This document shows, one piece after another, positions 1 through 35,251 of a stretch of DNA of 64,000 nucleotides. Under the pieces are notes generated by a model. That model made no database searches. It saw nothing but the letters and a program-made list of their open reading frames with translations, and was not told where the DNA came from. Position numbers and translations under genes: made by a program. Location of the stretch: NCBI GenBank assembly GCA_032249235.1, contig JAVVGF010000001.1:96001-160000 (forward strand), given 5' to 3'. Position 1 is the first letter of the stretch. Every line of letters starts with the position of its first letter. The stretch is from Thermoproteota archaeon. Lineage in GTDB: Archaea; Thermoproteota; Thermoprotei; Gearchaeales; Gearchaeaceae.

Positions 1-591
1 AGGAAATATAGCTCTCAAATTGAATTAGCTTTAGATATTTTTGAAAAAAGAGGAACCGAAGTTTTAGTTATTGAAATTGAATATCCAAAAATTCCTCCAG
101 ATCAATTTTGGGGTGAAATTAAAAGAGCAGAGCGAAGTTTAAACAATTTCTTACAAGTATATGATTTTGAGATTTTAGATTCTTTAACTTATTCTGATGA
201 AGAAAAAGTTGCTGCAATAATTTTGGAATTGCGATCTAAAGAATTGAAAGAATTGAGAACTTTAGTAGGACCTCCGCTTAGCGAGTTGAAGAATGTGAAA
301 TCTTTCATAAAAAAACATTCACTTGAACCGATCTTTTTAAGAAATGGAAGACTTCATGTTTTGACAAAAAGAAAGATAAGCTCTTTCAATGAAGCTTTCA
401 ACAAATGGATAGTTACTCAATCATTACCTAAGGACTTAATTTATCCTTTGAAAAATGCTAAAATATATTCAGCTCAAGAAGCTAATGATAAGGGAATAAA
501 AAGGAGAATATTCGATTTGGCATTCAAGGATTTTTGGTGGGTAAGAGAAGATCTGATAAAGCATTACAATATAGTTTTTGATGAGATTTGA
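1..591 (+). CDS. cca: CCA-adding enzyme (archaeal class I), C-terminal part; 5'-truncated by window edge
   Basis: Frame 1 is open from base 1 (RKYSSQIELALDIFEKRGTEVLVIEIEYPKIPPDQFWGEIKR...LVGPP). The D-x-x-WG-x-x-x-R and GPP motifs match the body/tail of archaeal CCA enzymes, and the gene is followed by a kinase gene as in many archaea. Confidence 0.8.
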   Translation, partial: RKYSSQIELALDIFEKRGTEVLVIEIEYPKIPPDQFWGEIKRAERSLNNFLQVYDFEILDSLTYSDEEKVAAIILELRSKELKELRTLVGPPLSELKNVKSFIKKHSLEPIFLRNGRLHVLTKRKISSFNEAFNKWIVTQSLPKDLIYPLKNAKIYSAQEANDKGIKRRIFDLAFKDFWWVREDLIKHYNIVFDEI

Positions 592-34873: not shown

Positions 34874-34958
34874 GCTCCGGTAGCTCAGCTGGGAGAGCGC
34901 CCGGCTGAAGAAGCTTTCGGAAACCGGGAGGTCGCTGGTTCAAATCCGGCCCGGAGCA
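34874..34958 (+). tRNA. tRNA-Phe(GAA) with 12-nt intron (34911-34922)
   Basis: GCTCCGG/CCGGAGC-A acceptor; CCCGG-CT-GAA-G|AAGCTTTCGGAA|A-CCGGG; CTGA pairs with intron TCGG (splice helix). Confidence 0.94.
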
Positions 34959-35004
34959 TATTTTTATTAAAACCTATATATTTCTTGATAATATGATAAT
35001 ATAG

Positions 35005-35137
35005 CCCCCGGTAGCGTAGCCTGGTAACGCATCCGGCTGTAGGGGTTCCCCGTATAGGCAAGGAGGTCTATGACCGCCGATGAGCCTATATCAAGGCAGA
35101 AACCGGAAGATCGCTGGTTCAAATCCGGCCCGGGGGA
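35005..35137 (+). tRNA. tRNA-Tyr(GTA) with 59-nt intron (35043-35101)
   Basis: C1:G72 acceptor CCCCCGG/CCGGGGG-A; TCCGG-CT-GTA-G|intron|A-CCGGA; CTGT pairs with intron GCAG followed by an AA|A bulge. Confidence 0.94.
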
Positions 35138-35176
35138 TTCAAAAATTTAAGTTCCTTTTAGATAATTTTTCATTAG

Positions 35177-35251
35177 GCGACCGTAGTCTAGCCAGGACTA
35201 GGACATCGGCTTTCCGAGCCGAGGACCCGGGTTCAAATCCCGGCGGTCGCA
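35177..35251 (+). tRNA. tRNA-Gly(TCC)
   Basis: GCGACCG/CGGTCGC-A acceptor; TCGGC-TT-TCC-GA-GCCGA; GGTTCAAATCC. Confidence 0.96.

Follow-up and report, generated by a model that had tools for sequence, protein, structure and literature searches.

A conserved K-turn hairpin in the tRNA-Tyr introns of Thermoprotei and its possible role as a guide for pseudouridylation of U35 in its own precursor

Can the intron of a tRNA direct the modification of the very precursor that contains it? The question is raised by the tRNA-Tyr(GUA) gene in a 64,000-nucleotide stretch of DNA from an archaeon of the phylum Thermoproteota (assembly GCA_032249235.1, contig JAVVGF010000001.1, positions 96,001 to 160,000; the whole stretch is called the window here). 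An earlier note on this DNA had proposed that the 59-nucleotide (nt) intron of the gene folds into a cis-acting guide of the H/ACA type aimed at U35 in the anticodon, the site at which pseudouridine (Psi35) would be formed. By comparing the intron with those of relatives, we find a hairpin with a kink-turn (K-turn) at a constant distance from pairing with the anticodon arm. Whether the intron is an atypical H/ACA-like pseudouridylation guide for U35 of its own precursor seems to us evenly balanced, and support for that reading is lower for the window's genus alone than for the class Thermoprotei.

With the Rfam tRNA model, 35005-35137 scores 52.5 bits (E 2.2e-10) with a 62-letter insert in the anticodon loop, and ARAGORN with introns enabled reports the gene as (gta) i(37,59); the default ARAGORN run, with introns off, overlooks it. 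A cloverleaf with an intron at 37/38, the hallmark of archaeal intron-bearing tRNAs, is present. Apart from tRNA, Rfam places no family above threshold over this gene or over the loci of the relatives, and none matches a separate candidate on contig C4 discussed below. The source genome (G000; 1.43 Mb in 18 contigs, 91% complete) belongs to an uncultured hot-spring lineage, and the sequencing runs that contain the tRNA-Tyr stretch are mostly labelled hot springs metagenome. The parts of the gene are listed here with the basis for each in parentheses, where MFE stands for the minimum free energy fold and C and NC for the canonical and non-canonical stems of a K-turn.

35005..35137, plus strand: tRNA-Tyr(GUA) gene with intron; C1-G72 acceptor pair, discriminator A35137 (Rfam tRNA model; ARAGORN with introns)
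35005..35042, plus strand: 5' exon, tRNA nt 1-37; G34 U35 A36 at 35039-35041, with the proposed target U35 at 35040 (sequence, cloverleaf)
35043..35101, plus strand: 59-nt intron at the canonical 37/38 site (Rfam, ARAGORN; homologous introns of 50-81 nt in 34 relatives)
35043..35051, plus strand: 5' flank, with a short 5' arm formed by CCC 35049-51 and 35042-44, the latter being G37 and the two G that open the intron (MFE)
35052..35059, plus strand: 5' strand of an 8-base-pair (bp) stem, the NC stem of the K-turn and equivalent of an upper stem (MFE, RNAalifold)
35060..35061, plus strand: non-bulged K-turn strand, A(2n) A(1n), facing A35083 and G35082 (alignment of relatives)
35062..35078, plus strand: apical hairpin, K-turn C stem and loop (MFE; RNAalifold small helix, columns 63-65/71-73)
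35079..35083, plus strand: bulged K-turn strand, G-A-U (L1-L3), then G(1b) A(2b) (AUGA at 35080-83 invariant in alignment A1)
35084..35091, plus strand: 3' strand of the 8-bp stem (exactly 8 nt from A2b to the first arm letter)
35092..35093, plus strand: 3' arm, C with G34 and A with U33; 2 bp here, 3-12 bp in 30 of 34 relatives (CA invariant in A1; offset and anchor tests)
35096..35102, plus strand: GCAG (35096-99), pairing with C32-U35 as the central splice helix, then the 3-nt bulge A-A-A with the 3' splice site before its last A (MFE)
35102..35137, plus strand: 3' exon, tRNA nt 38-73 (Rfam alignment, MFE fold)
35108..35110, plus strand: AGA, tRNA nt 44-46, proposed earlier as an ANA box (16 nt after the stem)

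The 8-bp stem 35052-59/35084-91 appears in the minimum free energy folds, and the GAU bulge (35079-81) and the adjoining G-A (35082-83) that had been read from the letters of the 59-nt intron are present. Taken alone, the tRNA-Tyr gene of the window is unexceptional as a fold: its pre-tRNA has a z score of -2.19 against shuffles (5 of 200 as stable) and its intron one of -1.64 (11 of 200), and a loose hairpin pattern has 31 matches in this AT-rich genome, where the element itself is single-copy. It is the comparison with relatives that makes the hairpin real.

A BLAST search with the tRNA-Tyr gene gave full-length matches in 10 relatives. A covariance model was built from a 14-sequence alignment (A1) and run on 120 genomes of the class and 151 of the phylum, and tRNA-Tyr precursors were extracted, 44 from Thermoprotei and 29 from the phylum's other classes. 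The same type of K-turn hairpin occurs in 32 of the 44 class introns and in 2 of the 29 others; these 34 introns come from 24 genera and 14 families, with the related sequences among them not being independent. From 10 sequences belonging to the window's order, RNAalifold predicts the stem, 7 of whose 8 pairs show changes on both sides, and in all 18 bulge-free introns layers 4-10 are paired, with 3-4 pair types per layer. The bulged strand reads N-A-U-G-A in all 34 introns (L1-L3 being GAU in 21, AAU in 9, CAU in 3 and UAU in 1). On the non-bulged strand we find GA in 26, AA in 7, the window among them, and UA in 1, counts in which 2n alone is informative because the parse demanded A at 1n. 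A relaxed parse that tolerated one mismatch over-extended the stems of four introns (G004, G024, G021 and G036); for these four, a strict parse and a position-only test were used instead. The conservation of stem and K-turn that the earlier note had called for is present, across 34 introns and 24 genera and with compensatory change in the stem.

The same comparison shifts the register of the K-turn. In a standard K-turn, the C stem and the NC stem are separated by a 3-nt bulge and, after it, tandem G.A / A.G pairs (PMC5061560; this and the other papers cited are drawn on for parts of their text, to which our statements about them are limited). In the window, the conserved register is predicted to be A35060.A35083 / A35061.G35082, with the C stem starting from G62-G63/C77-C78. 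The partners first assigned to the tandem pairs, 35063-64, must be given up because in relatives the stem is followed at once by GA or AA, at the equivalent of 35060-61; a relative from the window's own genus (G001) has GU in the place of G63-A64. The GAU bulge, G82-A83 and A61 of the predicted K-turn are all present, and A at 2n gives an A.A pair in place of the standard A.G.

Introns of other kinds surround this group. In 12 of the 44 class members (family f8, genus g39 of family f4, and family f15) the intron is shorter, at 27-46 nt, and has no K-turn. Those at the f8 and f4 g39 loci (L183, L185-L189, L191, L196, L197 and L200) are 30-46 nt long and start with (U/C)CAGCC; when this start is paired with G30-G34, U35 A36 G37 and the first intron letter are left as a 4-nt loop. 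In the other classes (L210-L238), 27 of 29 introns are 42-58 nt long and lack the K-turn. Most of these have a first hairpin, then YCAGC(C/U)-N3-CNRGC, itself a possible small hairpin, and then the splice helix, which makes them a different conserved intron architecture. The tRNA-Tyr of family f4 genera g7 and g13 was not located, the top matches in five genomes (10 loci) being other tRNAs except for the tRNA-Tyr of G118, in genus g39. Within the window's family, the tRNA-Thr(CGU) of G008 (L190) has a long intron with a GA ... UGA hairpin that is loosely K-turn-like, and tRNA-Thr(CGU) in the window's own genome is intronless.

How does the hairpin stand to U35? From G1b to the closing G52.U91 pair, G82-A83 and the 3' stem strand make 10 nt in the window, and counted from sheared pairs to closing pair the stem has 10 nt on each strand, a 10-layer GA stem of the H/ACA kind. 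The number of layers stays at 10 although flank length ranges over 1-16 and 5-30 nt and intron length over 50-81 nt. A GA stem of 10 bp is reported for every H/ACA ribonucleoprotein crystal structure and for 14 of the 15 P. abyssi folds that are productive, and one of 8-13 for Pyrobaculum H/ACA-like RNAs (PMC4652768).

This constant length is matched by a constant register in the anticodon arm. In the position-only test, the stretch starting 8 nt after A2b pairs for at least 3 bp down from G34 in 30 of 34 introns. Other offsets (3-7 and 9-14) give 0-12 of 34, with the values at 11-13 coming from the distal copy belonging to the splice helix; when the offset is held at 8 and the anchor is moved through nt 24-45, only nt 34 works (30 of 34), every other anchor giving 0-2. 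The mean arm length is 5.76 bp, compared to 0.78 in shuffles, none of which attained 5.76 in 2000 attempts. Three sequences of the window's genus, with a 2-bp CA arm, and one relative with an offset of 9 (G046) make up the four exceptions. Among the 12 introns with an arm of at least 8 bp, nt 27 and arm letter 8 are C-G in 6, G-C in 4, U-A in 1 and U.G in 1, and in G124 a G28 stands opposite C where others have C28 opposite G (these covariation counts were read by eye from aligned rows). Arms of 8-9 bp occur, for example, in introns of the G059, G054 or G026 type.

On the other side of the pocket, 26 of 34 introns have a C immediately before the stem, facing G37, and RNAalifold predicts the G37-C pair and the next one, each GC in 9 of 10 sequences. 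The two arms described for the window stand: CCC 35049-51 pairs with GGG 35042-44 in the MFE, and CA 35092-93, opposite U33-G34, is invariant in the alignment. A classic bipartite H/ACA guide has 3-10 bp to either side of an unpaired U-N. The window's arms measure 2 bp (3') and 3 bp (5'), where relatives have 3-12 bp and 0-4 bp; the shortness of the 3' arm, already conceded when the pocket was proposed, sets the window apart from 30 of the 34. Across relatives, U35 and A36 are predicted to be exactly two unpaired letters at the foot of the 10-layer stem, because the 3' flank pairs from G34 upstream and the 5' flank from G37 onward. As in H/ACA guides, it is the 3' flank that takes up the target strand upstream of U35 and the 5' flank that takes up the strand downstream, and so the pocket and the orientation of its arms hold beyond the window.

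If the intron acts as a guide, L7Ae would bind its K-turn, Cbf5, Nop10 and Gar1 would dock on the stem, and U35 would be isomerised, either in cis or on another copy of the precursor. The precursor would then refold into the cloverleaf with its bulge-helix motif and be spliced. Genes for Cbf5, Gar1, Nop10 and L7Ae are present in the window's own genome.

A number of observations weigh against the intron being a guide. The 5' arm is C plus 0-3 letters, 0-4 bp in all, and shows no covariation. The lower stem of 7-9 bp that marks classic H/ACA RNAs is absent from the pocket fold; the long helix that relatives do have below the stem is the duplex between arm and tRNA itself. The proposed box is indeed present as AGA at 35108-10, 16 nt after the stem, but it is not conserved: only 7 of 34 introns have an ANA triplet at a distance of 14-16 nt, 5 of them in the window's own family, where the triplet is simply tRNA positions 44-46. 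Complementarity of the CAGCC type to nt 30-34 is found in K-turn-less tRNA-Tyr introns as well (12 of the 44 Thermoprotei introns and the majority of the 27 from other classes), so that part of the arm signal may serve another purpose, and the arm of G052 coincides with its splice helix. That a substrate in cis could reach the active site of Cbf5 would have to be assumed, and Psi35 is itself a predicted modification in this lineage. Finally, the window's genus is the weakest case, with a vestigial 2-bp arm and a feeble switch. With its 3' arm shrunk to CA, the element there would be either a weak guide or a relic kept for L7Ae binding, and a weak guide is conceivable because contacts of 2-4 bp are reported to suffice for the self-modification of atypical guides (PMC11077068).

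Folding energies add to these doubts for the window. Its MFE, at -57.0 kcal/mol, is the cloverleaf with the splice helix, and the fold constrained to the pocket reaches -49.5, that is, 7.5 kcal/mol worse. The splice helix CUGU/GCAG (35037-40/35096-99), recognised from the start, is part of the MFE together with a 3-nt bulge at 35100-02 and is kept in 14 of 14 relatives. The bulge-helix-bulge motif of archaeal splicing consists of two 3-nt bulges on either side of a 4-bp helix, with further helices flanking them. At the 5' splice site there is no clean 3-nt bulge backed by an outer helix, and for this reason the bulge-helix-bulge of the window is modelled as a relaxed form. Pocket and splice helix had been described as mutually exclusive. 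In the window, this is true of the 2-bp CA arm, which alone excludes the splice helix, but the GGG 35042-44/CCC 35049-51 arm coexists with it in the MFE.

Relatives with longer arms behave differently in the models. In 11 of 34 precursors the MFE is the pocket fold. Of 14 precursors folded under constraints, 7 have it as their MFE, with a lead of 1.4-7 kcal/mol over the fold constrained to the cloverleaf. The arm of those precursors resembles a second copy of "CAG + anticodon stem 3' strand", upstream of the real splice-bulge copy. In long-arm relatives, then, pocket and cloverleaf/splice folds truly compete by these calculations, and the suggested switch from modification to splicing keeps its footing there, while in the window, with its 7.5 kcal/mol penalty, it is feeble.

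A guide might be expected where the protein enzyme for Psi35, Pus7/TruD, is missing or damaged, and the earlier note had looked to its absence or degeneration. Instead, the genome encodes a full-length homologue (371.9 bits; a 454-amino-acid open reading frame without stops) that, aligned to M. mazei TruD (1Z2Z), keeps the basic residue of motif IIIa and reads KDRRA in motif II. Of the 120 class genomes, 111 yielded a Pus7, among them all 73 of good quality, and the 46 of 50 loci that aligned over the motifs all keep the basic IIIa residue. The defect of the Sulfolobales-type archaeal Pus7 (aPus7) consists of I at motif IIIa and A-N in motif II (PMC2651775), and it was not seen in the 46 aligned class loci. 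Motif II does vary, being KD-R/K-R in the window's order, with the exception of G011, and KD-T/S/A-x elsewhere; both of its basic residues are lost in most genomes of the K-turn-less family f8. Pus7 therefore looks intact here, judging by its motifs, and since it is also widespread there is no sign of the deficiency thought to call for a guide, which counts as a further argument on the opposing side. We rejected the idea that the introns replace a lost or weak Pus7, because the enzyme is intact and the variation in motif II is not the pattern expected. One homologue in the window's family (G004, L245) carries a single in-frame TAG, which could be a sequencing error, a pseudogene or recoding.

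With an apparently active Pus7 in the cell, the intron could instead present an unpaired U35-A36 beside a helix to that enzyme, as in eukaryotes, and the K-turn would merely stiffen the scaffold. The anticodon loop fits the preference of P. abyssi Pus7 for a UA dinucleotide (PMC2651775), and the K-turn-less f8 introns also pair CAGCC with nt 30-34 while U35 A36 G37 U are looped out. Yet Pus7 needs no intron, because the P. abyssi enzyme also modified intron-less tRNA-Tyr (PMC2651775), and neither a K-turn nor a 10-layer ruler has a known role for it. We consider this explanation improbable.

A more serious competitor takes the hairpin as a module that binds L7Ae and controls the folding, stability or splicing time of pre-tRNA-Tyr without any pseudouridylation, for example by keeping the anticodon arm in a non-cloverleaf fold until the protein binds. 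Much of the evidence above sits well with it: the K-turn is the best conserved part, the guide arms of the window are minimal, Pus7 is intact, CAGCC-type complementarity also occurs in K-turn-less introns, and the pocket and cloverleaf folds compete. What such a module leaves unexplained is why the stem has a constant 10 layers despite variable flanks and intron lengths, and why the paired stretch ends at G34 in every case and begins again at G37. As L7Ae partners, the portions of PMC5539422 drawn on here name no tRNA intron, and the word intron is absent from them. We judge this module unlikely, though far from negligible, and the guide remains the reading we favour.

The gene stands in a small cluster. 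It is flanked by tRNA-Phe(GAA) (34874-34958, plus strand) and tRNA-Gly(UCC) (35177-35251); the three lie on one strand within 380 nt (34874-35251, plus strand), separated by AT-rich spacers, and could form one transcription unit or three close ones. The tRNA-Phe has an intron of about 12 nt after position 37, appearing in Rfam as a tRNA with a 15-letter insert, and is misnamed by ARAGORN, as Leu(aag) without introns and as Ser(gga) i(35,12) with them.

A hot-spring metatranscriptome run (X19) contains a 93-letter contig (depth 8.9) that covers 35042-35104 with one differing letter; its other 30 letters do not match the window, and RNA end, circle and strand are not readable from it. Exons and spacers beside the intron have no contig cover in this run and no joint is seen, so the contigs are uninformative on splicing, ends and circles. 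A stretch of 23S-like sequence on contig C10 (CCUUG-U-C-GGG) came up as an rRNA target for the flanks of the window's intron and was rejected, the match being at chance level with a core pattern that occurs 52 times in the genome.

These observations bear on a further alternative, in which the excised and possibly circularised intron would be a stable small RNA (sRNA) acting in trans on another target such as rRNA, with the fit to U35 secondary. The metatranscriptome contig covers the intron, as this would predict, and flanks of the window's genus can pair with the 23S-like stretch. Against it, that match is no better than chance and does not suit the CAGCCGG arms of most relatives, the contig shows no RNA end, circle or strand, and the arm covaries with nt 27/28 of tRNA-Tyr. 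Such a role seems to us slightly less probable even than presentation to Pus7.

Does the genome offer comparators for a guide in an intron? Its only other long tRNA intron (54 nt) is that of tRNA-Trp(CCA) (G000:C1:300476-300604, minus strand), in which a box C-like GAUGAUGA is followed by antisense to the tRNA's own anticodon arm. By analogy with Euryarchaeota, this is the known box C/D arrangement in which an intron serves as the guide; a relative from the same family (L199) has the same arrangement. On contig C4 (L293; about 345-450, minus strand), a candidate canonical H/ACA motif combines a lower stem of 9 bp, a pocket of 7/6 nt, a further stem of 8 bp with GA, an apical hairpin of 18 nt, GAUGA and ACA, and its upper stem has the same design as the tRNA-Tyr intron hairpin. 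It may be part of the pre-rRNA leader, because it lies about 40 nt upstream of the 16S rRNA 5' end, and a strict pattern found no target for it in the assembled contigs. A crude search of the own genome for a trans guide to U35, with AUGA-to-CAGCC(GG) patterns, matched only coding DNA or the antisense of tRNA genes, a result too coarse to establish that such a guide is absent.

Extended to the group as a whole, the guide reading would hold that pre-tRNA-Tyr, in much of Thermoprotei and at least two further families beyond the class, guides its own Psi35 in cis through L7Ae and Cbf5, that a switch orders modification before splicing, the splicing endonuclease having to wait until the modification fold is undone, and that these introns are possibly a source or a sink of the Sulfolobales guides. 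For this broader proposal we would put the chance somewhat short of even. To our knowledge, all known archaeal H/ACA guides are separate genes. Our literature search, outside which lay most subscription journals and supplements, found no K-turn or H/ACA-like element described in an archaeal tRNA-Tyr intron, and the portions of three reviews drawn on here name the box C/D intron of tRNA-Trp as the only intron-embedded guide (PMC11408192; PMC4090602; PMC7991803). If the proposal is true, the tRNA-Tyr intron would hold an H/ACA-like guide for the very tRNA that carries it. This would set a pseudouridylation counterpart beside the tRNA-Trp intron and show that RNA-guided pseudouridylation can act in cis. 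The tRNA-Tyr introns of these hyperthermophiles, conserved and unusually long, would gain a function, their competing folds would tie the order of modification to splicing, and the finding would bear on the origin of the Sulfolobales trans guides for Psi35.

Among known systems, one comparison is with the intron dependence of Psi35 in yeast and plants. There, too, Psi35 is made before splicing on the intron-containing precursor, by Pus7 (cited in PMC2651775), but recognition is by protein only, with no K-turn and no guide pairing. The box C/D intron of tRNA-Trp is likewise a K-turn guide in an intron aimed at the anticodon arm of the same tRNA (PMC11408192; PMC4090602), and differs in guide class and in chemistry, which is 2'-O-methylation by fibrillarin. 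Box C is RUGAUGA and box D is CUGA, and the single-stranded guide ends upstream of box D or D' (PMC5539422); the tRNA-Tyr intron of the window has GAUGA and no CUGA box. Unlike in box C/D RNAs, its complementary stretch flanks the stem and does not lie between boxes, and the letters beside the boxes form the stem.

The target is shared with the trans guides of Sulfolobales. The earlier note had mentioned an intron-based model for that order; what the papers cited here describe is classic H/ACA sRNAs that act in trans on pre-tRNA-Tyr, in Sulfolobales and A. pernix (PMC2651775), pairing with both anticodon arm and intron (Sso1, sR115; PMC2651775; PMC11077068), and deletion of sR115 in S. islandicus abolishes Psi35 (PMC11077068). 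Like Sso1, Sto1, Sac1, Mse2, Ape7 and sR115, the intron element would address U35 (PMC2651775; PMC11077068), and as in Sso1-type guides base pairing joins the 3' guide to the anticodon stem-loop and the 5' guide to the intron, leaving U35 and A36 unpaired (PMC2651775; PMC11077068). Unlike them, it lies in cis and has neither a lower stem nor a conserved ACA. Moreover, Sso1-type guides occur where residues of aPus7 are replaced in motif IIIa and motif II (PMC2651775), whereas here Pus7 looks intact.

In form, the element resembles the atypical H/ACA-like guides of Pyrobaculum and S. islandicus (sR109, sR136, sR148 and sR563), single K-turn hairpins with no lower stem and no ACA, which in S. islandicus are functional in vivo and in vitro without these parts (PMC11077068); proteins of P. 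furiosus are reported to work with atypical guides of foreign origin (PMC11077068). Its putative guide sequence directly flanks the stem, as theirs does, and its GA stem of 10 falls within their range of 8-13. Many of the introns also share the extra nucleotide just 3' of the GA pairs that belongs to the descriptor of Pae sR204/208/209/210 (PMC4652768). One of the S. islandicus guides, sR148, works with its 3' guide only, and atypical guides are themselves modified by Cbf5 at uridines of their own 5' flank, through duplexes of 2-4 bp with the 3' guide (PMC11077068); the intron element would resemble them in its one-armed guiding and in having uridines on its 5' flank as targets of self-modification (PMC11077068). 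The atypical guides are free-standing sRNA genes with mostly rRNA targets. The element described here, by contrast, sits inside the intron of tRNA-Tyr, and its only covarying complement, known from sequence alone, is the anticodon arm of its own host tRNA.

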